From positions 2,316-66,315 of the forward strand of contig JAYUTB010000008.1 in the NCBI GenBank assembly GCA_043756005.1: a stretch of DNA of 64,000 bases, in the 5' to 3' direction. Source of the DNA: Spiroplasmataceae bacterium. Its GTDB lineage: Bacteria; Bacillota_I; Bacilli_A; Mycoplasmatales; JAYUTB01. The position numbers and the translations under genes are program-made. The notes beneath the pieces were generated by a model. The model was given only the letters and a program-made list of their open reading frames with translations. It made no database searches and was not told the origin of the DNA. Each line of letters opens with the position of its first letter. Positions within the stretch are counted from its first letter, which is position 1. This document shows positions 4,150-52,331 of the stretch, piece by piece.

Positions 4150-4477
4150 AATTTAAAAACAATACTAAGTTGTTGTAATAAATAATTTAATCATCTATTT
4201 AAAAATCATCGGCTTCTTTTGAAATTAAACAATGAAACACGCTTTTACAAATGTTTTCATCACATTTGCGACGCCGTTTTAATTCAACTGCATTCATATC
4301 ATCACCCTACCTTTACTTTATATATTACGTTGTTTTGATATGTTATATCAACAAACAACTAATATTATTTAAACTGTTTTTTATAAATTTCCTAAAAATT
4401 TATAAAAAACATCATCATCAGGAAAGTAAAGTGGTGAACAACCTCAATAAGCCACATTTTGTATTTTTAAATTTAAC

Positions 4478-4826
4478 TTTAAAAACGTTGATTATTTATC
4501 TATTAGTATAAATACTAATCCGTATCTTAGTTCAGTTACTAAGAAACGACTCCTCTACCATAAAATTGTTTGAGTTGCTCGCTTGTGGGGTTTACCGCGT
4601 TTCACTTTTTAAATTTCTCTAAAAAATCGTCACTGTGGCACCTTAAAAATCAATCAACCATGGTTAATAAAAACTTTAGGTTAATCAATTTGCCGTTAAG
4701 AGGTGGGTGACCTCCTACTTAAAGTTATTGATTCCTTTAACACAATCATTATAATCATCGCAGATTATACGCGAGGGTGGACTTTCCTCTAATTTTTTTT
4801 AAAAAATCAGCAATCAACTTTCTGGC
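4478..4826 (-). ncRNA. rnpB: RNase P RNA (ends approximate)
   Basis: The reverse strand carries the universal AGAGGAAAGTCC box (comp. 4779-4790) preceded by a P3-like hairpin, plus GTGCCACAGTGACG and AAGATACGG segments. GTTGATT (comp. 4812-4818) can pair with AATCAAC (comp. 4487-4493) as a closing helix. Confidence 0.85.
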
Positions 4827-5704: not shown

Positions 5705-6661
5705 ATGTTAATATTAGCAATTGAATCAAGTTGTGATGATTTAAGTATTGCCATAACGCGTCATAAAACTGTGTTAGCATGTGTTACTTATCATTCAGTA
5801 TCATTACATCGTCAATTTGGAGGCATTATTCCAGAAGCTGCGTCACGTGATCATTTACATAAATTACATGATGTGTTAAACAAAACATTATTAAAAGCTA
5901 ACATTAGTATTAATGAACTTGATTATGTAGCTTACACAAGTCAGCCTGGCTTAATTGGTAGTTTATTAATTGGTAAAGTAATGGCGCAAGCGATTGCTAG
6001 TTTAATTAACAAACCTTTAATTGCATGTAATCATCTGGAAGGTCATGTATATAGTGCAATGTTACATCATCAATCATTTACCTTTCCCATGATCGCGTTA
6101 ATAGTTAGTGGCGGCCATACGCAATTATATTATTTAAAAGCTCATGGCGATTTTCAGGTAATTGGTGAATCAGTTGATGATGCCGTGGGCGAATGTTATG
6201 ATAAAGTTGGGCGGGCTTTAAACTTGCCATATCCGGCGGGCAAAGAAATCGATCGTTTAGCAGCTCACTATCAATGACCAGCCAAATATTTATTCAAGCA
6301 CCCACACTTTAAAAATGTTGCTCAAACTGATCATCATTTTAATTTTTCATTCAGCGGCTTTAAAACACAAAGTTATCAAATTATGCAACAACAAATCGCT
6401 GACTTAGATGTTAATAATTTTGCATACAGCTTTCAAACAAGCATGATTAATTATATTATGCACATTGTTACAAAGGCCATTAATAAATATCAACCCACCA
6501 TGCTGGTGATTGGTGGTGGGGTGGCGTTAAATTCTTTATTGCGTAACAAAATTAAAAACTTACCGATAAAAACGTTAATCCCTTACAAAAAATATTGTGC
6601 TGATAATGCAGCTATGATTGGCTTATTAGCTTATATTAAAATCACTCATGGGCAAATTTAG
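5705..6661 (+). CDS. tsaD: tRNA N6-adenosine threonylcarbamoyltransferase TsaD
   Basis: MLILAIESSCDD..., NHLEGH and SGGHT motifs of Kae1/TsaD. Track ORFs 5705-6277 and 6383-6661 share a frame and are joined by TGA codons. Confidence 0.9.
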
Positions 6662-12377: not shown

Positions 12378-14147
12378 TTAAGATAAAATAAGATCCGCTA
12401 CATCCATTTTGACATGATTGGTCGTAATTTTATCAATTTTGCCATTTTTTACAAACACAACCGTATCAGCTAACGAAGTGATGTTTGTATTATGAGTTAC
12501 CATCACAATTGTGGTTTTTAATTTTTTATTAATATTAACTAGGATATTTAACATAATCCGTGACGTATTATCATCTAGTGCGCCAGTTGGTTCATCACAA
12601 AACAAGATAATTGGTTTTTTAGCTAACGCTCGAGCAATAGCCACTCGTTGTTGTTGTCCCCCTGATAATTGATGCGGAAATTTATATTTATGTTCAGTTA
12701 AACCAACCATCTCAATAATATCATCAACATTGGTTGATTTATCAGGATTTAAATAAGCACCTAATTGAATATTTTCCATCGCTGATAAATTATTTAAGAG
12801 ATTGTATTGTTGAAACACAAAGCTAATATTTTTTCTTCTAAATAATGTTAAATGAGCATCTTTTAAAAAAGATAAATTGTAATTATTAACAAACACATCA
12901 CCTTGCTGAGCTTTATCAAGTCCAGAAATAATATTTAATAACGTCGTTTTACCAGATCCAGAAGAACCTAAAATAACTACAAACTCGGATTGACGAATTT
13001 TAAGATTAATATCACTTAATATGCGGCGGGGCGTTACACCAGTTAAAAAATATTTATCAACATTATGTAATTCAATAATATTATTGACATCTGGTAACAA
13101 ATCACCACTAGTGCTATAAGATATTGGCTTTGGTGGCGTTTTAGAGAATTGCTTACTAGATTTTGGTTGAGGTAGAGCAGCTTCAAGTTCGTTGTCTGAA
13201 TTAATTTGATCTTCTATTGTTGATGATTCGTTAATTATTGGAGTTTTTTTAGAAAATCATTTGCGAGATGATGGTTTAGGTAGAACAGCTTCAAGTTCGT
13301 TGTCTTGATTAATTTCATGATTTAATGGTAATGATTCTTCAATGGTGGGTTGTTTTTTGGAAAATCATTTGCGCAATTTTGGTTGAGATAGAACAACTTC
13401 AAGTTCGTTGTCTTGATTAATTTCATGATTTGATGATAATGATTCTTCAATGGTGGGTTGTTTTTTGGAAAATCATTTGCGCAATTTTGGTTGAGATAAA
13501 AATGTAGAATCAACTTCATTAACTGGTTCAAATTGATTAACTAACGGTAATGAATGATCAATGATATTATTTTGAAGTTTTGAATATTTAGCAATTCGTT
13601 TATTATATTTAATGATTTTAGAAGAATATTTACGAGTTAATAAGTTATTTATTTTGATTAATTTTTTATAATCTGAAAACAAAATAATGTTTTGTTTTTC
13701 AATAAGATCTAAGTTTTGTGAATCATTTACATTGTAAAGTAAGTTTTTTTGTTTAATAAGTTTGTCGTTAGTGATGGATGATGAAAATTCATCAATGATG
13801 GGTTGTTTTTTAGAAAATCATTTGCGCGATTTTGGTTTAGATAGAGCGGTTTCAAGTTCGTTGTCTTGATTAATTTGAGCTTCTATTGTTGATGATTCGT
13901 TAATTATTGGAGTTTTTTTAGAAAATCATTTGCGAGGTTTTGATTGAGGCAGCGCAGCTTCAAGTTCGTTGTCTTGATTAATTTCATGATTTAATGGCAA
14001 TGATTCTTCAATGATGGGTTGTTTTTTAGAAAATCATTTGCGCGATTTTGGTTTTTGCAAAACAGTCGATTCGAGCTCGTTGTCTTGATTAATGTCATTA
14101 TCAGATGATAATTCATTAATTATTGGAGGGTTTTTAATTTTTTTCAT
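12378..14147 (-). CDS. ABC transporter ATP-binding protein with about 350-aa repeat-built N-terminal extension
   Basis: The C-terminal 240 aa hold Walker [10 protein letters not shown], signature LSGGQQQRV and Walker [10 protein letters not shown] checked codon by codon that the same frame stays open (TGA=Trp) up to ATG comp. 14145-14147. The start overlaps the ftsH stop by 14 nt. Confidence 0.85.
13141..13508 (-). repeat. 108-nt (36-aa) coding tandem repeat, block A, about 3.5 units
   Basis: The unit [35 protein letters not shown] recurs. Its TGA-Trp codons sit at 13257, 13365 and 13473, an exact 108-nt spacing. Confidence 0.9.
13797..14130 (-). repeat. 108-nt (36-aa) coding tandem repeat, block B, about 3 units
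   Basis: Same unit as block A. The TGA-Trp codons are at 13818, 13926 and 14034. Confidence 0.9.
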
Positions 14148-18057: not shown

Positions 18058-19131
18058 ATGATTTATAATAAAAAAACATTCTTATTAAGAAAATCTGCAT
18101 TATTGTTTGTTTTAATGCCGGTAGTAGCGATTATTACTACAGCTATTGATGAAAAAATAGATGGAACATTGATTAAAGATATAAAAGAAGAAGAAATGAA
18201 GAAATGAACAAATGCAAAAATTAAAGCATTTACGTCTGAACAGATTCGATGATTAACACCGGAACAAGTTGGATGATTGAAGAAAAAACAATTTTCAAAT
18301 TTAATAGCAAAAAAAACATTTACTGATAATGAAGTTAAAGATTTATCGCCATTTGAAATATTTATTTTATCTAAAACACAAATTGGATGATTTAAGGAAG
18401 CACAAATTGGATGATTTACGAAAGAACAAGTTGGATGATTAACAAAAAAACACTTTTCAACGTTTAATAAAAAAGAATTTAAAACTTTGTCGCCTTTTGA
18501 AATATCTATTTTATCTGAAGAACAAATTGGAGGATTTACAAAAGAACAAATTAGAGAATTGACTAAAGAACAAATTGGATGATTAACACCGGAACAAGTT
18601 AAATGATTGAAGAACAAACAATTTTCAAATTTAATAGAAAAAAAACCATTTACTAATAATGAAGTTAAAGATTTATCGCCATTTGAAATATTTATTTTAT
18701 CTAAAACACAAATTGAATGGTTTAAGGAAAAACAAATTGAATGGTTTAAAAAAGATCAAATTGGATGATTAACGTCTGAACAGATTTGATGATTAACGCC
18801 GGAACAAGTTGGATGATTGAAGAAAAAACAATTTCCAAATTTAATTGAAAACACGTCATTTAATATTAAAAATTTATCACTGTTTGAAATATTTATTTTA
18901 TCTGAAGAACAAATTGGAGGATTTACTGATGTACAAGTTAAATGATTAACATCTGAACAATTAAAAATGTTTAATTTTAAATTAAATCATAACAGTAAAT
19001 GAGATCAAACAACATGAATTGTTATGTATACATTATTATCATTATCTGCAGCGACTATTGCTGGAATTATAATCTTAATGAAATGAGAAAAAATCAAAGC
19101 AAGTTGTACAAAAAGCAAACTAAGTGATTAA
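18058..19131 (+). CDS. repeat-rich membrane-anchored surface protein (xEQ[IV]xW[LF]T octad repeats)
   Basis: AAGGAAAAA lies upstream of ATG 18058. The product has an N-terminal TM/signal helix, about 20 short repeats arranged in 3 larger super-repeats, and a C-terminal TM helix. The frame is open only with TGA=Trp (at least 15 in-frame TGA). Confidence 0.8.
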
Positions 19132-23665: not shown

Positions 23666-23697
23666 TTGACTTTATATATATATCATTTAAGTAAGGT
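23666..23697 (+). promoter_or_regulatory. promoter-like TTGACT + (TA)5 tract + SD upstream of the 23698 gene
   Basis: TTGACT at 23666-23671, (TA)5 at 23673-23682, then TAAGG before ATG 23698. This is a short version of the cassette seen at 35876, 47434 and 27493. Confidence 0.5.
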
Positions 23698-25343
23698 ATG
23701 TTTATGAACAAATTACTTAAATTATTCCCGATTGCAATAATTGCGCCTATGTTGGCGTTGACTTTTACTTCAGCAGTTGTTACACCTAAAGCTGAGGGTC
23801 ATTTTAAATATATTAACAACTCCATTACATTTAATGGTAAAACTTATTCAACCGATAATTTCAACTCACACAATCAAAGAATTTTAAAAATCAGTAGTGT
23901 GGAAATTATTATTGATAAACCGACAAAAGATTTTGTTTTTTACACAATTAATGGTGTTGATTATTTATATGTTGAAAAACAAAACACACTAATTAATTTA
24001 TCAACCAGTACAAAAGATTCTTACGTAATATATGGTGGAAAACTAAAAGTTTTTAATATCTTGGGGGGGTAGATTATATATTATATTGATATGGATCGCA
24101 CTGAATTTTTTCAACCATCGATCACCTAAAATATTGATACCCTACTGATGAAGTAAATTCTGTTGAAATTCTTGATGGCACTCACATTCAATTGAAATTG
24201 AATAATTCAAAATATGTTTGTTTAAATTTAAACTTACACAATAAAGTTATATCAAGTGATAATTCATTTTGAAAAGTATTTATTGATAATGAAACTGTAT
24301 TTTTAGGATATATATTTTATAATGCTGATTTAAATGAGCATCCAATTTTTAAAACTCCAATATATATGTCTGTATGAGAATACTCAAATATATACATTAA
24401 AAAAGACTTATCTGGGGGCTTGTTTGATTTCACAACAAGACTTACTTCAAAATCTATACAAAAATGCTCGTCTTATAAACCAATAACAATTGACGGCATT
24501 AAATTATTCATGGTAACTGTTGATAATAAACAAGAATTTTATGATGTTGATTTAAATAAAAAAGATGAATACAGTATTAAAATTCTTCACAATAACAATT
24601 ACATTGAACGAACTGTTGCTGATGTTAAAACGTTATTCAAGTTTGATGATGGCGCAAAAATTACATCAATCCTAGATTACAAAAAACTTGAAGAACGAAC
24701 CGTTGATACCGTTAAATTATTAATGGTAACTGATGCAAGTGATGGTGTAAAATTTTATAAGGATAGCGATCAAGCTTTAAATGGTAACTACACAACAATC
24801 AAACCGCAAGACACAAAGTACATTAAACGAACCGTTGATGGTGTGAAAACTTTATTCAAACTTGATGGCACATCAATTACAGATTACAAAGAACTTGAAC
24901 CACGAACGATTGATACCGTTAAATTATTGATGATAACTGATGCAAGTGACAATGTAGCATTTTATAACGATAACGATCAAGTTTTAAATAAAAACTACAA
25001 GTCAAGCACTCTGCATAACACAACTTACATTGAACAAACCGTTGGTGATGTTAAAACGTTATTCAAATTTGATGATGGCGCAAAAATTACAACAATCTCA
25101 AATTACGAAAGCATTAAACCAATAAAAAGCTTATTTAAAAAGAAATACTTAGAAGTAACTAACATTGAAAAAACAGTTGATTGATATAGTAGTATTAGTG
25201 AAGGCAAAAAAGATGATTTTAAAAAAACCTCTGGTATTATAAAATATCAGACTCCAATTGTAATTGGAGCTTCGGTTGGTTCAGTAAGTGTTGGTGCTTT
25301 AATTACTGCATTAATTTTAATTATTAAAAAACGTAAAAAATAA
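23698..25343 (+). CDS. variable surface protein, split by a frameshift at a G7 tract (apparent OFF state)
   Basis: The signal-peptide ORF 23698-24072 stops just after G7. The frame starting at 24069 is open (TGA=Trp) to TAA 25341-25343 and ends in a TM helix plus KKRKK. One extra G fuses the two parts (about 548 aa). Confidence 0.75.
24063..24069 (+). repeat. poly-G (G7) homopolymer at the frameshift point
   Basis: The sequence CTTGGGGGGGTAG can be read directly. Confidence 0.95.
24601..25110 (+). repeat. coding tandem repeats of about 205-220 nt (YIExTVxDVKTLFKxDG...TVDTVKLLM[VI]TDASD)
   Basis: About 2.4 units are visible in both protein and DNA (24601, 24823 and 25027 all begin TACATT[GA]AAC[GA]AAC). 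Confidence 0.85.
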
Positions 25344-26516: not shown

Positions 26517-27423
26517 TTTATTTTTGACGTTTTTTAATAATAAAAACTAATGCTGTAATTAAAGCAATAATACCTAGTGAAACAGGTAATCCAATTGTTA
26601 AAAGTTGGTTATTTGTATCAGTTTTTGACGTTTCTTGAGCTTTTGGTATTGGTTGAGTGTCTGAAGTTTTTGGTTTTTCTTGAACTTTTGGTATTACTTT
26701 AGTTTCTGAAATTTTTGGTATTGGTTGAGTTTCTGAAGTTTTTGGTGTTGCTGGAGTGTCTGAAGTTTTTGGTATTGGTTGAGTTTCTTGAGCTTTTGGT
26801 ATTGGTTGAGTGTCTGAAGTTTTTGGGGTTGTGGGTTTGTTTATTGTTACATTTTTAACAATTGTATTTTGAAATTTTAATTCAATTTGATCATTTGGTA
26901 ATTCGTTTATTGAATCAATATCATTTGCAATTTCATAACTGATTGAATGGTCTATTTTTGAAAATAAAATTTTTTGATCTTTAATATATGTTATTCAATC
27001 ACCTTCAGTTAAAGAAAAAACTTTTGGAAGATTTTTAATCTTATCATCTGCTTTTCCGGTTGTTAAATTTATAAAATAATTAGAAGTGACTTTGGAACCA
27101 AAACTATCTATAAATAAATAATCATTTTTATCAATCGTCAAAAAGAACATTTTGGTTTTGTAGTCTTTTACATCATCAGGAATATAATAAAAATCATCTT
27201 TATTTAAAATAATTGCATAATATAGATTACCTCATCCCCCTCATTTTCTTTTCTCTATTTTATATGTTTTGTCATTATATTCAATTTCTTCTATAATTCT
27301 TTTATTGTCACTAAATGTTTCAAAATCAGTGAATGATTTTTGCTTAATATCTGCTGAAAATAAAGTAATAACTAAAACTGGTACAACAATAATTGGTAAT
27401 ATATTTTTCAATAATTTTTTCAT
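26517..27423 (-). CDS. surface protein with Pro/Thr/Lys-rich repeats; C-terminal membrane anchor out of frame
   Basis: ATG at 27423, signal peptide MKKLLKNILPIIVVPVLVITLFSA. The frame checked codon by codon ends at TAA 26533-26535. The anchor SLGIIALITALVFIIKKRQK* (to 26517) lies in the adjacent frame after the A4/T4 run at 26579-26582. Confidence 0.7.
26590..26830 (-). repeat. imperfect 27-30-nt coding repeats (PIPK[TA][SQ][DE]TQ)
   Basis: GGTATTGGTTGAGT[GT]TCTGAAGTTTTTGG-type units are repeated about 7 times. Confidence 0.8.
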
Positions 27424-27493
<70 letters not shown>

Positions 27494-29366: not shown

Positions 29367-29669
29367 TTAAAAATTATTTTTTCATTGCGTTAGCACATTA
29401 ATAAATAATATTACAAACGTTTCCGTTAAAAAGGCAATCATGATGCCTAAACAAAATCATTTTAATGATTTGATTGTTTCTTGTCTTTCTAAGCCTTGCG
29501 TGGCATATATTTTAATACCAATAATAATGCCACGAATTACCGCAAATAAACTAGTAATCACTAATAAAGCAGAAATAATACCATTACAAATGTTTTTAAT
29601 AGTGATTAATAATTCATTATTCGCTAATGTCATATTCATCATGGTCGTCATCATCAGTTCATGCATCAC
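29367..29669 (-). CDS. small two-TM protein, last gene of the T4SS-like cluster (possibly pilin/VirB2-like)
   Basis: Track ORF 29457-29669 extends through TGA to TAA 29367. About 100 aa with two hydrophobic helices. It overlaps the 3' end of the upstream gene. Confidence 0.5.
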
Positions 29670-32001
29670 TTTCTAATTGATCAGCATTAATAATCAATGC
29701 TCTTTTATTTCTGTTACGGATATAAAAACAAATGATAATTAAACCCACAAAAAATATCATCGATCCGGCTACTACGCCAAACAAGATCATCAGATTAGTT
29801 CAGGTGATTTGTTCATCAAGTTGAGCTTGATATTTGTTATAAGCATTAATGATTATTTCCTCATATTTTTTTTGTAAATTTAAATAATTGTCACGGGCTG
29901 CTTTAGATATTGGTCGGGTTCAATTATGGAGTTTTAAGATAATTGCTTCTTTAGTTTGCCAATCTTTAAAGTGGGCGTTTTTAAAACCATCATCGATTTG
30001 TGCTGTTAAAAAAAGCTTGGCTTTAATAATCGTTTTTTCTAAGATGCCTTTGGTTCAATGATTTCAAAAATTACTGAAAGTAATAAAAGAAGATATGGTT
30101 GTGTCGTTGATATCTATTACATCACGCACAATGTTTTGATGTTCATAACCGTTGACATTTAGTAATTGATGTTTTATAAAAGCGGCGGTTAATTGGGGAT
30201 GATAGTTAGTAATATTTGTTAATCAACTGTGCATTTGATGATGATGTTGATTTTTAATAATATTAAGTTGATGAGTTAACATTTGATGATCAAGTTGATT
30301 GATGGTGGCATCATCAATGTTAAAAAACTTGACTCATGTTAATTGACGAGGTGTAATATTGTTGGGTACTTGATCACTACCAAGTTGTAAATAAAAATCT
30401 TGGTGTTGGTGGTTGATTTTAACAACGGTTAATTTTAATAAAGTAGTATTTAAACCTGGTTGATTATATAAATTTTTATTGACAACCTGATCACTGAGTG
30501 GTAATGGTTTTCAAATATCTTTTTCTTTGATCGATAATTGGGTTGATTTTATAAAATGAGGAAATTTATTTTGCAGCTGGATTTGTTGATGGGGGGTGTA
30601 ATAAATTTTGACCGTTTGCTGATCAATGGTTCTTCATACATAATCTTTAATTAAATTATTTTTGGCTCAAAAAAAATTTTGAGCTAAGGCTTTATTAAAT
30701 AATGTAAAATTGATAATTTTAGTATTACCATATTGATCGTTAACAACGATTTTATAATCATTAGGTTGCGTAAAGGTAAACATGATTTGATTATTTTTTA
30801 AGGTAATTTGATATGGTAGTTTGGGTGATGAATTTTTAATCACAATTTTGTTAGCAATTGTGATAGCTGGTTCACCATTAATGATGATGTTTTTAAGAGT
30901 ATTATCAAGTAAAATATGTCAATTAATTTGATCGTCAAAGTAATATGCAGTTTTTTTAACATTTTGTTGATCAGTAAAATAAGTAATTAACTGATCGGTA
31001 GTGTTGTGATAATGATATAAATATTGATAAATATTATTGTGTAAGGTAATTTTTGTTTTATCAAAGCTGTTAATATAAAATGGTTTTTGAAGAGGCGGAA
31101 TTAATTGATTATTGATGGTTACAAAGAAATAATAATGTTTATCAACGTGTTGACTGTTGATTTGATCAACTAACATGGTCGTTTGAAATTGATTTTGTTT
31201 GGTGAAAGTGAGTTTTTGTTTTTTTCATGGTGATTTATTACCAGCACGAAAATTTAATTCAAAAAATAAATGTTTGAGAACTTGATTAGTAAAATGTTTG
31301 CTATGATGAGTTAGTTTAAAGGTTAGTTTAAATGGTTTATTTTTGAAAATTGGTTGAGGTTGCTGGTTAAGACTAGTAACATTTGTTTGATGAACATTAT
31401 CATCAACAGCAGTAATATTTAGTTGCAGATCATTGAAATCGACCAATAAAGCATAATCTTTTTTTAACAACGATGTGTTATCGCTCGGATATCAAGTGAC
31501 TTCTTTGCCATCTTCTGATAAAGGTTGATCTTTAGGATATCGATATCAATACCACACACCACCACTGGGTAGTCATAAATTAACTCGTAAATTACTTAAA
31601 TACATATTTTTTTTATCAAATCTGATGTCGGGGGCGTGAAAATTAGCTCAGGATACTTTTTGAGCAGGCTTGTCTAAATCAGTAATTGATTTACGATATC
31701 AAGCTTTACAATGTTGTGTTCTTTCGCCACGCAATCATCCATAAGCGACATGACATTTATTAATGGATCAATCAACTCAATCATCTTTACGAAAATAAAG
31801 ATAATTATCATTAATACGCACTTCTTGTCAATGAGCTGAATCTTTAAGCAGTTGTTTTTTCTTAAAAGCACCACTCACTAAATACCAAGCGTTATTTTCT
31901 CAGATGACAGCAACATCAGTATGAATTAATAATGATTGGTTTTTTATAGGTGGGGAGAGATGTTGCGATGATAAAAAAAAATTATTATTAATAATCACCA
32001 A
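29617..32001 (-). CDS. large Trp-rich protein with C-terminal TM anchor and acidic tail (about 794 aa)
   Basis: A single frame traced codon by codon from TTG/GVG near 31996-32001 to TAA 29617, with many TGA. It includes track ORFs 30919-31176 and 31225-31470. C-terminus: MILFGVVAGSMIFFVGLIIICFYIRNRNKR...DDDDHDEYDISE. No family recognised. Confidence 0.6.
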
Positions 32002-32029
32002 AGTTGTTTAATAAATTTAATAGTACGAA

Positions 32030-33091
32030 TTATTTTTTAAACACCCCTCTTTTTAATTTTTTAATGATGCTACTCATTTGTTGTGTTTCGTAACTTAAAT
32101 TTCCTTTTATTTTGAAAACTTGATCATAAACATGTTGCGCTCTTACTAAAAAAATGCCGGAGGCAATCAATAATAATAATTTTAAAATGACATTTGCAAA
32201 AAAATCATCTTTGTTAAAAATCATGAAATGATTGATGGTATATAATTTACTAATGACTGATATAAAAATAAATAAATTCAGATTTAAACCAAAAATTAAT
32301 AAGGTTTTTGACACAAGGGTGGTTTGTCAATTTTTAAAATGCTTACCACCATCATAAGCAATTCACGCAATTGCCAGTGGTCCTAATAAAAACAACAGTA
32401 ATATTTCAAACATTCTTTGAATTAAACAAAGACACATTGATGTTAATGTTCAAATAATAACACCTGCTCCAATCATCACTATGATGTTGTGAAATTGATG
32501 TTTTTGATCATAACTTCATTGGTAGTTTAAAGTAATATTAGTGATCTCAGCTTCGGTCATTAATTGATGAGGTGTAAAACCGGATTGATAAATTTTATCA
32601 GCAATAATATTAGTATCTAAACTGTTATGATGTTGAAAAATAGCCCCCATTAACAAAAAAATATAATTATTAATGGTGATAAACAACATTGGAAAGGTAA
32701 TGATAAAAATAATAGCCACAAAAACATGTTTAATAATATTGTTTATTTTTCATGATTCTTGATTAGTAAATAAAAGATTAATTACTTTTAATATTGCCGC
32801 TAACATAATGACACCACCTGCTAGGATGGAAATAATCATATAAAAGAGATTGTGCTCGTTCATGTTTAATTCATGTAACATTCATTTAAAAAATTGTTCG
32901 CCTAATAAATAGTTAAAAACTATACCAATTTTTTGCACGATTTTTAATAGAAACATGGTAATTTGAAAAATCAAATTATAAAACCATGTATTTCATCATG
33001 CTGCATTTGGTCCAATATTTAATGAAGTACATATGATCAGCAACACGATTATCAAAAACATTTTTAAACAATAACGACCGCGTCGTGACAT
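32030..33091 (-). CDS. polytopic membrane protein (VirB6/TrbL-like position)
   Basis: ATG at 33091. Track ORFs 32030-32314 and 32516-32719 share a frame joined by TGA. At least 6 hydrophobic helices. It lies directly downstream of the VirB4-like gene. Confidence 0.6.
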
Positions 33092-33101
33092 ATTATTAAA
33101 T

Positions 33102-35597
33102 TTAAAACAGATCTTTTTCATATTGATCAACTGTAATTTTTACTTTATTCATGATATTGTCTGAAGCAATTAATAAACACTCACCACGGTGTAATTGATT
33201 AATTTGTGAAATCACCAGTTGGTTTTTAATTGATTTTTTTAAAAGAGTATCAAAATTATTAACATCACCATCATTTAAATTAAAAACCAACATGGTTTGC
33301 GCGTTGTTTAAAATACTTTCGGTTTTAAAACTATGGCTAATATTGACGAAATCTTTAATGTTTTGACTAATAATAATTGTGCCACCTTGATATTTTCTAA
33401 TGCGTTTTGTTAAATTAAAAATAAAATTAAGGGGTTGATAGTGATAATTATCGGCAAATTGATTGATTAAAACATGAGCTTCATCAATCACAATGTATAT
33501 ATAATGAGATTGTTGATTGAGTTGATTAGCTAAGCGATTTTTTAAAACTTCTTTTTCAACATAATAAAAAATTAAAAACAACAATGCTTTACTAAATGAA
33601 TTGTTATAACTAGTTTGTAAAGAACTAATATCAAATAATGTAATACTTTTTTGTAAATTTAAATTAGTATGACAATTAAAATAACTGGTTTTGGTAAGTA
33701 AGGGTTTGAATAATTCAGCTAATTCAAGATTAATTTTGGTTGCTTCACAAACTAAGCAATTATATAAATCTTGCAAAACTGGAAAATCAGCGCTGGTTAA
33801 ATAAGCAAGCTCACTAAAATTATCAATTTCTTTATCTTTATACATTTGATATAAAAAAGTCGTTAATACATCAAGTTTGGTTTTATTTAAAAAAGGAAAT
33901 AAAATATTAAATCAGATTTGTAAAAAAGCAATATGATTGTCCAACTTTAAATGATTGTCAAAATATATTTCAAAAGGATTAATATAAATATTTTTATTTT
34001 GAAAATCAATAATATCACCTTTTAATGAAGTGACAATGTTGCGATATTCTTGTTCTGGATCAATAATGATGATTTTGTTTTGATTTAAAACAGCTTGTTT
34101 AATAATTTTTTTAGCCGCAATTGTTTTTCCTGAACCACTTTTACCAAGAATAACGATATTATGATTAATCCGTTGTTGATTTAAAAGATCAGGATTAAAG
34201 ATAATATGACTTTGATTTTGTTGATTAATACCTAATATTAAACCTTGTTTATCTTGATATTTTTCATATGCAAAAGGTCAAAACGCAAATCAAGTAGTTG
34301 ATAATATTTCTTGATGATGATAATTATAAAATAATGGGCGAGGTTGATTTCATTGCAGGCATTGTTTTAAAGCAGTGGATTGTTCAAAAAATAATTCGTT
34401 AATCATGAAGTTTTGTAGTTGTAATTGATTAGTAATTTGAGTAAATGTTTGTTTTAATTGTTTTTTGTTATCGGCTTTGATAACAAAAAACAAATTAGTT
34501 GCATAAATTTCTTGATTAGTGGTAGCAACTTCATTAATAATTTTTTCAAAATTTGTTTGCAAAGAATGATGTTGATTAATCAATTTGTCGGTAGTGTCAG
34601 TTGCTAAATTATTGATGGCTTTGGTAACTTGTTTTTGAAAATTAAGTTTATTAATGGTGTGTCATGACATGTAATAGTTTAAATTAGCTAATGATTCATA
34701 TTTTGATAATCATTGTGGCGAAATATGAACTGGGTAATCTTCAATAGTAAAAAATTTATAATAAGTAGTATTAATTTTTAAGCAATTAAATTTACTAGTA
34801 ATTTTAACGTTCAAATCGGTAACGTTATAAAAATTTAATAATATTTTGATAGTTTCAGGAGCGGCCAATATTTTTGGAAACAACGGCAAATCATGATTAT
34901 TTAACAAAGCTTTATGTTCTTCAAAAGCAATTTTTAAATTTTTTTGATCAGGACTAGTTAAAATAATACTTATTAAAGGTTCAGTTAAAGTGGTTGTTAA
35001 GTTTTGGTATTTTGCTAATTCCAACATTAACAAATGTTTATAATCTTGATTGGTAACTATTAATTGTTGAATGTAATCAATTTGATCTTGTCAATTTAAT
35101 GGTTGGGTTAATTTAACAATATTAATGTTAATGTTATGTTTTTCGATTAATTTGAATGAATTAGTGATGATTTGAATTAATTGGTTTTTTTGCTGATCGT
35201 TAAAATTATGGAGATTATAATGATTGATAGTTAAAAACATTACGTAGTTGTGATTGATTTTAATAGTTTCATGGTTATTAAGTGGTTCTTGAAAAATTGA
35301 TCAGATTTTATTAAAAGTTAGGGTTTTTATTTTTTTAATTAAAAATAAAAACATGAGAATTAATAATTTATAACCTTTGATGTTGAAGGTGGGAATATTA
35401 ATTACCAACATGAAACATAAACTAAATCAAAAACACATGATCATGATTTTGATTCAAAATAACACATGAAATTTAAAAATTAAAAAAGCTAGTAAAATAA
35501 AGATAAAAATTAAACAACCATCGGGCAATGTAAAATTTTTAAAAATCTTTAATTTAATTTTGTTAATTTTTTTACATATTAAATATTCATGATTCAT
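33102..35597 (-). CDS. VirB4/TraE-like type IV secretion ATPase with N-terminal TM (VirB3-like) segment
   Basis: Four track ORFs in one frame (831 aa). Walker A ILGKSGSGKT, IIIDPEQEY and Walker B YIVIDEAHVL are typical of the VirB4/TrsE/TraE family. Two to three N-terminal TM helices. Confidence 0.85.
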
Positions 35598-35875: not shown

Positions 35876-35935
35876 TTGACTTTATATATATATATATATA
35901 AAATAAAAATAACTTATGTAAAGGAAGTTATTTTT
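35876..35935 (+). promoter_or_regulatory. promoter/leader cassette with (TA)9 and SD-overlapping hairpin
   Basis: TTGACT 35876-35881, (TA)9 35883-35900 (17-nt spacer to TAAAAT), AAATAAAAA, hairpin AATAACTT/AAGTTATT 35908-35932 overlapping AAGGAAG, ATG 35936. Confidence 0.7.
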
Positions 35936-36178
35936 ATGAAAAAATTATTGAAATTTACAAACCTAAATAAAGTAGTTTTATTTAGTTTGGTGACAATTCC
36001 GGTAGCTGCTATTTTAATGACGGCAAATGCTTGTCAAGGACCAACAGGACCAGCAGGATCTAAAGGTGAAACAGGAGCAGTAGGACCTAAAGGTGAAACA
36101 GGAGCAGTAGGATCTAAAGGTGAAACAGGAGCAGTAGGACCTAAAGGTGAAACAGGAGCAGTAGGACCTAAAGCGTAA
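35936..36178 (+). CDS. small collagen-like (Gly-X-Y)n putative lipoprotein
   Basis: [33 protein letters not shown] (signal peptide ending in Cys) is followed by 15 uninterrupted G-X-Y triplets ([18 protein letters not shown]...). SD AAGGAAG lies upstream and a strong terminator follows. Confidence 0.75.
36065..36172 (+). repeat. 27-nt tandem repeat x4 (GETGAVG[PS]K)
   Basis: GGTGAAACAGGAGCAGTAGGA[CT]CTAAA starts at 36065, 36092, 36119 and 36146. Confidence 0.95.
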
Positions 36179-36210: not shown

Positions 36211-36248
36211 ATGTTAGAGTTAAAATTTATAAATTTTAACTCTAACAT
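36211..36248. terminator. 18-bp perfect stem hairpin
   Basis: ATGTTAGAGTTAAAATTT-AT-AAATTTTAACTCTAACAT, located 33 nt after the collagen-like gene stop. Confidence 0.8.
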
Positions 36249-36660
36249 GAAATTAAGCTGTTAATTAATATTATTTAATTTTAGAAATCTTTTTTAAAAT
36301 TTTAAAAAAGATTTCAATTTTATTTGTGTTTTAATAATCTTTGTATATTTATATTATCACTGATTTTTTTAATATCATAAATCAATATTATATAACAATC
36401 GCCGTTATTTGAAATCTATAACTATTATAAAATAACAATCTTTTTTTGTATATTTATAATTTTTTTTAAGGACATCTTTTGTAATAATTTTGCCAATTAT
36501 ATGTCCACCTTTTAATGATTAATAACCTGTGCTAGTGATTTTAATTTGTATTCTTAAAAATACCCGTCTACAATAACATCATATTTAATGTTTGTTACAT
36601 CTACTCTACAATATTAGTTTTATAATAAAAAAAATTGATATCAACATTTGCTTCTAACAT

Positions 36661-36899
36661 TTATTGTATAGAAGATATACATTGTTTTTCATTTTTCAAT
36701 CCTACAATATAAAGTCTTTCTCTGTTTTGAGGCATATTTGAATAATTAGTTGTATTTATAATTTTGAATTTGATGTATATCTTAAATCTATTAATTTGTT
36801 TAAAATAGTAGCAAACGTTTCTTCGTTTTTATGAGGTTTTAAATTTTTCACATTTTCTAAAAAATTTTGGTTGTAATTTTTGAACAATTTTAAATACAT
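36661..36899 (-). pseudogene. relic of a C5 cytosine DNA methyltransferase (motifs VI-VIII only, frameshifted)
   Basis: Reverse frames give ...NFLENVKNLKPHKNEETFATILNKLIDLRY then, after a frameshift, IKFKIINTTNYSNMPQNRERLYIVG. These are the ENV and PQxRxR motifs of Dcm-type enzymes. The N-terminal AdoMet/PCQ motifs are absent. Confidence 0.6.
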
Positions 36900-36914
36900 C
36901 AAAAATTAAATCAC

Positions 36915-46424: not shown

Positions 46425-47382
46425 TTAGTTGTTGTTTTGAGCTGCTTTTAATTTTGCATCGGCTTCATCTAATGTTTGTTGAGCTGTTTTTAATTTTGCA
46501 TCAGCATCGTCTAATTTATTTTTACTTTCTAATCAACTTGATGAGTTGTTGAAATTTAAATTTGCAAAATCAATTGTTTGGTTAAATTTACTTAAAATAG
46601 GTTTGATATATGATGGAGAATATATATTATTCAATACTTGTAAAACATAAATTGATGATCAATTTTGATTTTTGATTGCATTAATTACATTAAATTCATT
46701 TTTTACAAACATAATATTAAAATTATTATCACTCGATTTTGGAATGAATAATGCAAGTAATTCTTTTAGTGCTGTTGTTTTTGTTTTTTCATCGGTTGCG
46801 TTAATTCATTTATCTAATAATGTTTTTTTAGCAGTATCTGTTGCAGGCATTAATGCTGTAAGTAATGTTTTTAGTGCGTTTATTTTTTCTGTTTCATCGG
46901 TTGCGTTAATTCATTTATCTAATAATGCTTTGTGATCTTTTGCTAATGCTTTAAGTAATTGTAGTAAAGAATTTTCGGTTGTTGCGATATTTGATGCTGG
47001 ATTTATAAATAATTGAAAATATGTTCTGCTTTTATCTCCACTTTTTGATAAAATTTTATTTAAATTTGTTGTTAAATTAGATTGTTCGGTTTGTAAATAA
47101 AATTTATAATTAAATATTGATTTAAGTAAATCTAAATCTAAAATTTTAGAATTTAAGAAATTTGAATTTATAATATTAAAATTTTGTTGAGCATGTTGTT
47201 GGTTTGTTTTTGCATGTTGTTGGTTTGTTTTTGCATGTTGTTGGTTTTTTATTGCATCATCTAATTCTTTATCAACACCTCAACAATTTTTTGCTGATGT
47301 TGAAATAACAACTGCCGGTATTGTTATCAAACTAAATAAAACAACTTTATTTAAGTTTGTAAATTTCAATAATTTTTTCATA
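46425..47382 (-). pseudogene. putative surface lipoprotein, frame broken inside the signal peptide at a T5 run
   Basis: ATG 47382 gives [16 protein letters not shown]. After removing one T at comp. 47338-47342 the frame reads LFSLITIPAVVISTSAKNC... and stays open to TAA 46425. It contains NQQHAKT x3 and LLDKWINATDE x2 repeats. Confidence 0.7.
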
Positions 47383-47434
47383 AAAACAACTTCCTTTTCA
47401 TAAGTTGTTTTTATTTTATATATATAAAGTCAAG
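47383..47434 (-). promoter_or_regulatory. promoter/leader cassette with (TA)5 and SD-overlapping hairpin
   Basis: On the reverse strand: TTGACT (47429-47434), T, (TA)5 (47418-47427), AAATAAAAA, hairpin AACAACTT/AAGTTGTT (47386-47410) overlapping AAGGAAG, ATG 47382. Confidence 0.65.
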
Positions 47435-47820: not shown

Positions 47821-48356
47821 TTATTTTTTACGTTTTTTGATGATTAAAATTAATGCAGTAATTAAAGCGATAACTAATATTAAGCCGCCCCCGCAATAAT
47901 TGGTATCTTATATTTTGTTCAAATTAATTTTATTTTATCAGCTTTGTTTGTTGTTAATTTTAAATCAGTTGTATATAAAGTTTTAATATTATCAACTGTT
48001 TTTTCAATGTAATTTGTGTTGTTGTGATTTACGATTGTATATATTTTACTTTCAATACCATTAACATCATAAATTTTATCAGCTGTTATGAACAATTTAT
48101 CATTATCAATTTTAATTAAATTATTTTTAATGTATTTTTTAGTTTTATCTTTGTTAGTTACTTCAATGGCTTGGTTTGTTATTGTTCACCCATCTTTTAT
48201 ATACATTAGTGTTTTGTTGTCTATAGTTGCTAAAATTATTCGCAAATCAAGCAGAGTTAATGTTGAAATACTCGTGTAATTTTCTATTAGATAAAACAAG
48301 TTCTTTGCATAGTATAAAGTTTTAGTTTTATCTTTATTAGTTACTTCTAAACAATG
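47821..48356 (-). pseudogene. C-terminal remainder of the 48357-49775 surface-protein gene (cut off by TAG and by a frameshift)
   Basis: The frame stays open after TAG 48357-48359 down to TAA 47880 and keeps the same repeat type (YIEKTVDNIKTLYTTD). The TM anchor LILVIALITALILIIKKRKK* (to 47821) is in the adjacent frame beyond the C5/G5 run at 47888-47892. Confidence 0.6.
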
Positions 48357-49775
48357 CTAAAACAATTTTGTTTGTTGAGTAATTTCGCCAATGTAGCTTT
48401 TTGTTTTGACTTTTAAGTCTGCTGTATATAAAGTTTTATTTTCATCCTTGTCAGTTGTTTCTAAGTAATTGATTGTTAAATCCGATTCCAAGATAGAATT
48501 TTGTTGTTTAAATTCAAATATGCGTTTTTTAATTGAAGTGTAATTTGTAATTGAATTTGTACCATCCATTGTATATAAAGTTTTAACATTATCAATTGTT
48601 TTTTCAATGTAATCTGTGTTGGGTGGTTTGGTTGTTTTGTATAATGTGCTTTGTTTTAAATCAACATTATACAATTTTATTTCTGTATCAAAAGTTACTA
48701 TTAATAATTTGTCAGTATCAAGTGTTTTTTCTTCGATGGTTTTGTAGTTTTCTATTTTTTTAGTTGAATCACTTAAAAGATATAAATTATTAGTTTTATT
48801 ATCGTTATTTTTTGATATGTATTTGATGTCAAAATATTTTTCAAGTTGATAAATGTTTTTTAACACTAAATCAGTATCAAAAAATTTATTTTCTTCACCA
48901 ATCGTTGTCATAAATAATTTTGTGTTATCAACAGTTATTTTTTTAATATCGTCAGTGTAGTTTTCAATTTTGTTTTTTAAGTCTGTTGTATATAAAGTTT
49001 TCGTACCATCTACGTTAGTTGATTCTAAGTAGTCTTTACCATCAACTTTTTTTTGTGAAATTGTTTTGTATTCGTTTGTTCAATTGTCGAAATTATACAA
49101 TAATATTGTTTTTCCAGAAATTGTTATTTCAATATATTTAATATTATTTATTTGTATAAATTTTTTAGATGCGTCTACTTTTTTAAAAGTAGTCATGTTG
49201 TAAACACATTCAGCATCATTAATATTTAATATTAAATAATTGTTTGGAAAAATTGTGAATTGTTTAGTAATGTTACTAATTTTCATGATTTTTTTTGTTG
49301 GATCGGTGAAAAGATATAAATCAAATGTGGGAGATGTATGAAATTGATATTTGATATAATATATATTAAAGTAATCTATTAATACATAATCTGGTGTTGA
49401 AATCTCTAATGTATGGAATAAAAAATTTTTATTTTTAACAGTTGTTGTTTGAATGTCACCTGAATATTGGGTTTTTTGATTTGCATTTTTTGTATATAAA
49501 GTTTTTGTCTTGTCAAGGTTATCTTTGATTATGTAATCTATACCAAAATGTTTTTTGTTGGATAGGTTTTTGTTGATGATGGTGGTTTGTTGGTTGGTAA
49601 AAATTCAATTGTCGGAGGTTCCAGTAATGTTATATAATATGCCGTCTATAGTAACAGATTTTATTGAAGGCTGAGATGTATTTTGTTGAACATCAGCACT
49701 CATTAATAAAGCTGATACTAATATCATTGGAGTGGTAATTAATAATGGCGATAGTTTGTAAAATATTTTTTTCAT
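48357..49775 (-). CDS. surface protein of the KTLY-repeat family (truncated form, 472 aa)
   Basis: ATG at 49775, signal peptide MKKIFYKLSPLLITTPMILVSALLMSA. Track ORFs 49080-49286 and 48357-48911 share a frame joined by TGA. It has repeats Y[IL]ExT.D..KTLYT like the 23698 gene. Confidence 0.7.
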
Positions 49776-52255: not shown

Positions 52256-52331
52256 TGGTACCCACGATAAGACTTGAACTTATGGCCACATACTTAGAAG
52301 GCATGTGCTCTATCCACTGAGCTACGTGGGC
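52256..52331 (-). tRNA. tRNA-Arg (anticodon UCU)
   Basis: The reverse strand GCCCACGTAGCTCAGTGGATAGAGCACATGCCTTCTAAGTATGTGGCCATAAGTTCAAGTCTTATCGTGGGTACCA gives a clean cloverleaf with anticodon loop CU-UCU-AA. Confidence 0.92.

Follow-up and report, generated by a model that had tools for sequence, protein, structure and literature searches.

The designs closest to the locus treated here have been described in the Mycoplasma mycoides cluster. The surface lipoprotein Vmm is set to ON or OFF by dinucleotide insertions and deletions in a repetitive promoter spacer, and work on the cluster reports poly-TA tracts (N = 10–16) that precede lipoprotein genes with a conserved signal peptide and repeat motifs. 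Here, we describe a gene of comparable layout, designated gene A, at positions 35936–36178 of a 64-kb stretch of contig JAYUTB010000008.1 ("the window", meaning the whole stretch of DNA that was analysed). Judged from its sequence, gene A rather probably encodes a surface protein and belongs to the contingency (phase-variable) genes of its host, a deeply divergent bacterium of mycoplasma-like type. Switches based on TA tracts, variable lipoproteins of tiny size and collagen-like proteins of bacteria are already known, as are collagen-like proteins with variable-number tandem repeats in another Mollicute. What is new is that these features occur together, that a non-collagen domain is missing altogether, and that the host lineage is a different one.

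Five things can be read directly from the DNA: how the locus is built, which cassettes it is related to, how TA count and spacer length are connected, that the triplets carry a collagen signature, and how Cys33 and C-terminal anchors are distributed. The features of gene A are:

35876–35881 (+): −35 box TTGACT, the first element of the cassette, the same in paralogues B, C and F
35883–35900 (+): (TA)9 tract, which fills the promoter spacer; candidate slipped-strand ON/OFF switch
35899–35904 (+): −10 box TAAAAT, whose opening two bases are the final TA of the tract
35907–35933 (+): leader hairpin with a 9-bp stem and a 9-nt loop; weak (−4 kcal/mol)
35920–35927 (+): ribosome-binding site AAAGGAAG, in the loop and 3' arm of the leader hairpin, ending 8 nt before the ATG
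35936–36178 (+): complete coding sequence, 80 amino acids (aa) and TAA, with ribosome-binding site, start and stop intact
35936–36031 (+): signal peptide, aa 1–32, with an n-region of 12 aa, an h-region of 18 aa and N-A as its last residues
36032–36034 (+): codon of Cys33, the proposed diacylglyceryl attachment site and proposed first mature residue
36038–36172 (+): collagen-like region of 15 G-X-Y triplets, with 27-nt units starting at 36038, 36065, 36092, 36119 and 36146
36211–36248 (+): downstream hairpin of 17 pairs with a 4-nt loop, starting 33 nt past the stop
36284–36315 (no strand): perfect AT-rich palindrome, followed by AAUUUUAUUU; nearer in appearance to a terminator than the hairpin at 36211–36248

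The promoter switch and its cassette family

In the promoter scan, gene A reached 10 of 12 matches (TTGACT, 17-nt spacer, TAAAAT). The spacer is composed of T and (TA)9, and its length equals 2n − 1 nt. Long TA tracts are found at only two places in the window, with 0.14 matches expected. These results bear out a preliminary description of the locus, which had reported a (TA)9 promoter with a 17-nt spacer, the best-spaced of its family, and a strong Shine-Dalgarno sequence: the tract lies where it was placed, the ribosome-binding site was judged to be good, and the spacer of gene A compares with 9, 27 and 9 nt in the three other cassette copies of the window, whose features are:

46425–47433 (−): paralogue B including its promoter (open reading frame, ORF, 46425–47381), with (TA)5 at 47417–47426, a 9-nt spacer and a product of 318 aa with SAKN before Cys33
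26518–27493 (−): paralogue C including its promoter (ORF 26518–27423), with TTT(TA)13, the tract at 27459–27484, a 27-nt spacer and a product of 301 aa without Cys
23666–24072 (+): paralogue F including its promoter (ORF 23698–24072), with TTGACT-T(TA)5, the tract at 23673–23682, a 9-nt spacer to TATCAT and a product of 124 aa

How gene A is transcribed and switched, and whether its product is lipidated, where it is located and what it does, we infer from the sequence as follows. A reusable cassette would consist of TTGACT, T(TA)n, TAAAAT, the leader hairpin with the ribosome-binding site and the 32-aa signal peptide up to Cys33. Slipped-strand gain or loss of TA units would shift the promoter spacer in steps of 2 nt. 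With n = 9, gene A would be ON because a 17-nt spacer is optimal, and at 9 nt (B and F) or 27 nt (C) the paralogues would be OFF; the spacing is thus predicted to be functional in copy A only. The product would be exported, most likely diacylglyceryl-modified on Cys33 and cleaved, which would leave Cys-Gln-(Gly-X-Y)15-Ala at the surface. If the near-identical 27-nt units slipped against one another, the product would become longer or shorter by 9 residues. Since 9 residues are three triplets, both the frame and the Gly register would be preserved, and gene A could vary in length as well as in phase. Like other variable lipoproteins of mycoplasmas, the product would serve as a variable coat or antigen of the cell surface, and the collagen-like sequence could also mimic or bind host molecules that recognise collagen.

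By analogy, a (TA)n tract in the promoter spacer together with a signal-peptide cassette and in-frame repeats corresponds to the established phase-variation design of Vmm and Vmc, a parallel that the preliminary description had understated. Vmm is, as gene A is predicted to be, encoded by a very small surface lipoprotein gene with a dinucleotide tract in the promoter spacer. Gene A shares with Vmm and Vmc the (TA)n between −35 and −10 boxes and the in-frame tandem repeats in the mature region, which are also present in B and C. Persson and co-workers, in 2002, are said to have found a mature part of 36 aa for Vmm, hence small size alone would not be odd. Homology does not extend to these genes: the searches with the cassette pattern and the signal peptide found nothing outside the genome of gene A. 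Compared with Vmm, the host of gene A is distant, the lipobox is different and the mature part is collagen-like. Vmc lipoproteins of M. capricolum (Wise et al. 2006) and the related families of M. mycoides subsp. capri also differ from gene A. Vmc genes are clustered, whereas the copies related to gene A are dispersed, with three contigs as a minimum. Their sequences are unrelated to gene A, the lipobox is canonical (AVIAC), and none of the proteins is reported as collagen-like. Gene A would work like vmm and vmc without belonging to their family.

The cassette itself is well delimited. The pattern TTGACTTT + gap + TATATAAAATAAAAAYA has three exact matches in the window, with none expected, and the copy of paralogue F, whose ORF has a signal peptide, is a fourth and more divergent one. 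Between A and B, DNA identity starts at the −35 box, with AAAACTTGACTT, spans the leader and the signal peptide and ends just past the Cys codon; upstream or downstream of this stretch, nothing is conserved between the two. A HMMER search with residues 1–35 against 1.84 billion representatives recovered only four proteins with the signal peptide, namely those of A and B as well as P0174 (195 aa) and P0176 (432 aa), which sit on other NCBI contigs of 66,147 and 11,688 bp. In these four proteins, the signal peptide is 67–74% identical, the mature parts are unrelated, and several contain in-frame repeats. Within the window, B has the repeat NQQHAKT, and C has the in-frame repeat TSDTQPIPK (26641–26826), a unit of 27 nt (9 aa) in approximately seven copies. 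Paralogue C is a back-to-back neighbour of metK, and its product ends in a transmembrane helix and KKRQK. A 15-nt inverted repeat was also observed in the signal-peptide coding region of gene A (35957–35991; 87% complementary, 5-nt gap), and it is mostly kept in B.

Just 5' of the ATG, the leaders of A, B (47381–47410, −) and C (27424–27451, −) each fold into a stem of 8–9 bp with a 9-nt loop, with weak energies. From A to B, a U-A pair of the stem is replaced by C-G, a compensatory change, and the 8-bp stem of C has another sequence in the same geometry. This stem may serve as a 5' stabiliser or as a modulator of the ribosome-binding site.

A search for the cassette pattern in 185,579 GTDB species genomes yielded ten loci. 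Five of these were read and attributed to chance: four stand before pilin-like genes and one before a gene in a contig of 45% GC, and none of the five has a TA tract. The remaining loci, also five, belong to unrelated taxa and were not read. Two further sets of ORFs in the window have a broken appearance. F (signal peptide and N-terminal domain, 23698–24072, +) and G (24366–25343, +), which carries 207-nt repeats and a C-terminal anchor, resemble halves of one disrupted gene, and D and the ORF downstream of it (48357–49775 and 47880–48206, both −) share a TVDxVKTLY-type repeat. These sets may be pseudogenes or frameshift-switched surface proteins.

On the downstream side, the preliminary description had assigned gene A a terminator with an 18-bp stem. 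A strong hairpin is indeed present at 36211–36248 (17 pairs; −20.4 kcal/mol in an 84-nt context, z = −4.4), but no U-tract follows it and the terminator scan of the locus was empty, and therefore the label of terminator is not established. The hairpin may stabilise or terminate the transcript, and the palindrome at 36284–36315 may be a bidirectional terminator common to gene A and the convergent dnaB.

Besides the missing U-tract, further points weigh against the assignment as a phase-variable gene. With five TA units each, B and F are remote from the ON length, which means that not every copy need switch. In addition, the public contigs of this lineage flank gene A without covering it, and therefore no variation in TA count or repeat number has been seen. 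Three Logan contigs (L001–L003), which carry the same L9 and MetK genes, match the window at 100% identity. Contig ends fall at 27457 and 35905 (both at long TA tracts), at 36286 (in the palindrome) and at 46816 (inside paralogue B); L001 and L002 terminate at the palindrome at 36284–36315. Public short-read assemblies systematically lose these predicted contingency loci.

The collagen-like product

Translation of 35936–36178 (+) agrees exactly with the preliminary description, in which the 80-aa ORF was said to encode a signal peptide and then nothing but G-X-Y triplets: the 32-aa signal peptide is followed by Cys33, Gln, 15 unbroken Gly-X-Y triplets, Ala and the stop. If cleaved at Cys33, the mature peptide would have 48 aa and a mass of 4.25 kDa. 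The units are arranged as (GPTGPAGSK)(GETGAVGPK)(GETGAVGSK)(GETGAVGPK)(GETGAVGPK), and Tandem Repeats Finder reports 4.9 copies of a 27-nt period (95% matches; score 234). Units 2–5 differ solely at one C/T site (Pro/Ser) and unit 1 differs at five positions; the repeats, described as perfect at the outset, are thus tandem 27-nt units as claimed, but near-perfect ones.

Several results speak for the forward frame and for the collagen-like character of its triplets. With the Pfam Collagen model (PF01391), residues 35–78 score 34.5 bits at a gathering cut-off of 27.2, and in all six frames of the window, runs of at least four G-X-Y triplets occur in gene A alone. Stops crowd four of the five alternative frames at the locus, and the fifth, on the antisense strand, runs through 95 codons without a stop, but also without any ATG, GTG or TTG; the forward frame is therefore the sole usable one, and an antisense gene was rejected for want of a start codon. 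A known RNA at this locus was likewise rejected, as no Rfam match was found there.

The composition follows that of bacterial collagens, in which Pro is preferred at X and Thr at Y: Pro occupies five X positions and Thr five Y positions of gene A. KGE is formed at 4 of the 14 Y-Gly-X junctions; KGE triplets provide interchain salt bridges, which are stabilising and slow unfolding. The unit is identical in eight of nine residues to the GETGAQGPK units of the collagen-like proteins P0002 and P0004. A search with the whole product gave 37 protein matches, all of which align via Gly-X-Y alone, and none of the 37 shares its signal peptide.

Compared with the characterised bacterial collagen-like proteins Scl1/Scl2, Lcl and BclA, gene A shares Gly-X-Y triplets without hydroxyproline that are rich in charged and polar residues, a variable triplet number and surface attachment, the latter two as predictions for gene A. 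Those proteins have a trimerisation (V) domain, a long collagen region and an LPXTG motif or other wall anchor, in contrast to the 15 triplets, the lack of a non-collagen domain and the predicted N-terminal lipid anchor of gene A. The NCBIfam models of Scl1, Scl2 and Lcl score 27–33 bits, over the repeats only, against cut-offs of 325–500, and gene A is thus no equivalog of any of them. Collagen-like Gly-X-Y proteins that serve as variable-number tandem-repeat markers are known from another Mollicute, 'Candidatus Phytoplasma solani'. By their description, these are larger membrane proteins with extra domains, encoded near mobile-unit regions, and no TA-tract switch is described for them.

Closer in architecture are P0008, P0027 and P0034, three small uncharacterised proteins of unrelated bacteria, in which the lipobox Cys is followed almost at once by approximately 14–19 KGE-rich Gly-X-Y triplets. 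They differ from gene A in their canonical lipoboxes (VGC, AGC and AAC) and in an extra C-terminal domain of 40–75 aa, which in P0027 and P0034 contains several Cys and could trimerise the chains. Mini collagen lipoproteins may thus form a broader class that has so far escaped study.

Whether the product of gene A would fold is a separate question. The preliminary description was right that the mature part consists of collagen triplets only: Cys-Gln, 45 collagen residues and Ala, without a flanking non-collagen trimerisation domain. It had also proposed that 15 triplets would be too few for a stable helix and that the number of repeat copies would vary. Based on the standard rise of 0.286 nm per residue, a helix of this peptide is modelled at approximately 12.9 nm, with 2.6 nm more for each 9-aa unit. 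Scl2 melts at approximately 36 °C, and its V domain nucleates folding; a free peptide of the kind encoded by gene A is probably marginal as a triple helix. It is possible, though doubtful, that three gene A chains form one. By analogy with lipidated synthetic peptides, N-terminal lipid tethering could compensate for the missing trimerisation domain. The comparison is with the synthetic collagen peptide amphiphiles (Yu, Berndt, Tirrell and Fields 1996), which also join a short collagen peptide to an N-terminal lipid, but are products of the laboratory, mostly with hydroxyproline; they illustrate a possible mechanism and do not constitute a protein family. A more specific proposal, which we consider unlikely, is that the lipid anchor stands in for the trimerisation domain, so that Cys33-lipidated chains, held in register, nucleate a hydroxyproline-free homotrimer of approximately 13 nm with KGE clamps. 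In that literature on amphiphiles, lipid tails reportedly raise triple-helix stability. If the proposal were true, each chain would contribute four sets of KGE salt bridges, and 27-nt slippage would let the helix grow or shrink in 2.6-nm steps. No smaller self-sufficient collagen module would then be known, and this one would be displayed by a cell without a wall and controlled by an ON/OFF switch, as a natural counterpart of the synthetic collagen peptide amphiphiles.

An alternative that keeps the same gene and switch, but does without a collagen helix, has a substantial though less than even chance of being correct. The product would then be a flexible, extended lipopeptide brush that acts as a variable antigen or shield, with the Gly-X-Y periodicity as a by-product of the amplification of one 9-aa unit. 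A single 27-nt unit is ancestral to all 15 triplets, and the repeats of B and C are unrelated to the collagen-like unit. Moreover, there are only 15 triplets and no trimerisation domain, a hydroxyproline machinery is not expected, and even Scl2 relies on its V domain. On the other hand, the near-identity of the unit to those of P0002 and P0004 and a typical bacterial collagen composition with a KGE salt-bridge motif in every unit argue for genuine collagen character, and tethering of many copies to the membrane raises the local concentration and aligns the N-termini. The predicted 48-aa peptide of a lipidated Cys and 15 triplets is the simplest natural test of whether tethering and salt bridges alone can hold a hydroxyproline-free helix, a question that bears on the minimal requirements of collagen folding and on collagen-mimetic biomaterials.

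Membrane attachment and origin of gene A

The preliminary description regarded the product as a lipoprotein. Its signal peptide has four Lys in residues 1–12 and a hydrophobic stretch in residues 9–33, as expected of the n- and h-region of a lipoprotein. Cys33 is the sole Cys in all four proteins of the signal-peptide family, which range from 80 to 432 aa, and none has a second hydrophobic segment. The exported window proteins C, G and E show the reverse pattern, with no N-terminal Cys and with a transmembrane helix and a Lys/Arg tail at the C-terminus. Because Cys33 and C-terminal anchors are complementary and cassette homology ends at the Cys, lipid anchoring is to be preferred as a reading, and attachment of the gene A product via Cys33 is likely.

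The evidence on the other side concerns the lipobox and the processing enzymes. The canonical lipobox is [LV](−3) [ASTVI](−2) [GAS](−1) C(+1), with reported variants that always retain the Cys. In gene A (T-A-N-A|C), only −1 and the Cys agree with it, and −2 is occupied by Asn; the paralogues have A-K-N or A-K-D before Cys33 instead of the A-N-A of gene A, and these are not canonical either. When seven exported proteins were aligned, each showed a site for signal peptidase I (x-[ST]-A, or A-N-A) at the corresponding position. Neither lgt nor lsp was found in the window. The only other candidate lipoprotein in the window by which the lipobox might have been calibrated, at 6648, turned out to be cytoplasmic GlpX. 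The earlier claim is plausible but not clear-cut: it is supported by an invariant and sole Cys33 in four proteins that lack any other anchor, but the lipobox is non-canonical.

If signal peptidase I cut after ...LMTA or ...ANA, the product would be no lipoprotein but a soluble, secreted collagen-like peptide of approximately 50 aa that would carry a free Cys close to the N-terminal end. A-N-A|C is a textbook signal peptidase I site that obeys the −3/−1 rule, the x-[ST]-A motif is aligned throughout the exported proteins compared, and the lipobox is off consensus at −3 and −2, with Asp or Asn at −1 in the paralogues. Secretion is nevertheless improbable, given that Cys33 is invariant and unique in proteins of such different length, that the C-terminal anchor is missing from these four proteins alone, and that cassette homology stops at the Cys. 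Moreover, Mollicute lipoboxes are relaxed, as in AAKC of the Vsp and Vpma proteins of M. bovis and M. agalactiae.

The ORF may instead be evolutionary debris that is not maintained by selection, left when a duplicated cassette landed beside, or captured, a foreign collagen-like fragment such as part of a phage fibre. The gene A protein (P0001) is a singleton without an orthologue, and an exact look-up of the 80-aa protein for other strains gave no match. The repeat uses the codons GGA, GCA, ACA and GTA, whereas housekeeping genes prefer T-ending codons, and the GC content of gene A is 48% compared with 27% for the window; this codon choice may point to a foreign or recent origin. All five substitutions of unit 1 miss the GG positions of the Gly codons, but by our own calculation this would happen by chance in approximately 28% of cases. 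Furthermore, gene A lies between a module of an integrative and conjugative element (ICE) and a decayed region with a DNA-methylase remnant, and F/G and D resemble broken family members. We nonetheless regard an origin as mere debris as improbable. Gene A is the one copy with the optimal 17-nt spacer, its ribosome-binding site, frame and stop are intact, a strong hairpin lies directly 3', and its repeat units are near-identical and in frame.

Host lineage and neighbouring genes

In the window, TGA is found at invariant Trp positions of MetK (FPWE) and RecA (GNWY), and an RNA search identified the following genes:

4445–4825 (−): class-B RNase P RNA, 236 bits
23301–23390 and 52259–52331 (−): two tRNA genes, from the same search

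The use of TGA for Trp, the ICE genes of Mycoplasma type and the class-B RNase P RNA point to a Mollicute-like host. The best non-self match of MetK among 5.8 billion proteins is 49–50% identical. A DnaB scan of the GTDB species genomes returned no relatives, and neither did two JGI metagenome scans. The host is a deeply divergent mycoplasma-like lineage that is essentially unsampled; its sources are one NCBI assembly and the SRA runs SRR23617201 and SRR22198335, and all inferences on gene A rest on the one assembly. The presence of a (TA)n spacer switch with a signal-peptide cassette in so distant a lineage (MetK at most 50% identical) suggests either repeated origins of this design or an age much greater than that of the M. 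mycoides cluster. Should the organism live in association with a host, adhesion or immune evasion could be affected by a collagen mimic that its surface can switch on and off.

The ICE module (29367–35597, −) is located between metK-ybeY and gene A, on the strand opposite to gene A. It comprises an Mbov_0395-like pilin, a membrane-anchored protein of 662–793 aa without a family, the membrane protein Mbov_0396 (107 bits, cut-off 70) and the VirB4 protein Mbov_0397 (431 bits, full length), with no TraG/VirD4 or transposase gene nearby. That gene A is an accessory of this element, encoding a surface lipoprotein for mating-pair contact, is very improbable: it lies 340 bp from the divergent VirB4 gene, and conjugation of ICEA of M. 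agalactiae needs the surface lipoprotein CDS14, but the same cassette occurs at three other, non-ICE positions of the window and on two other contigs, gene A is not in the orientation of the ICE operon, and none of the ICE families of NCBIfam resembles it.

Between gene A and dnaB, a 48-aa ORF (36756–36902, −) has a weak Pfam match to C5 DNA methylases; it probably represents what is left of a gene in a decayed spacer of 0.7 kb. Two other proteins of the window are rich in repeats. One is an exported protein of 357 aa (18058–19131, +) with ALTTAQ repeats (Pfam PF20080, 63 bits), tandem repeats of 24, 48 and 144 nt and a C-terminal transmembrane anchor. The other, of 589 aa (12378–14147, −), has an N-terminal half made of 108-nt tandem repeats (13160–14136, ...RKWFSKKQP...), and its C-terminal half looks by eye like an ABC-type ATPase, which would make it an unusual fusion.

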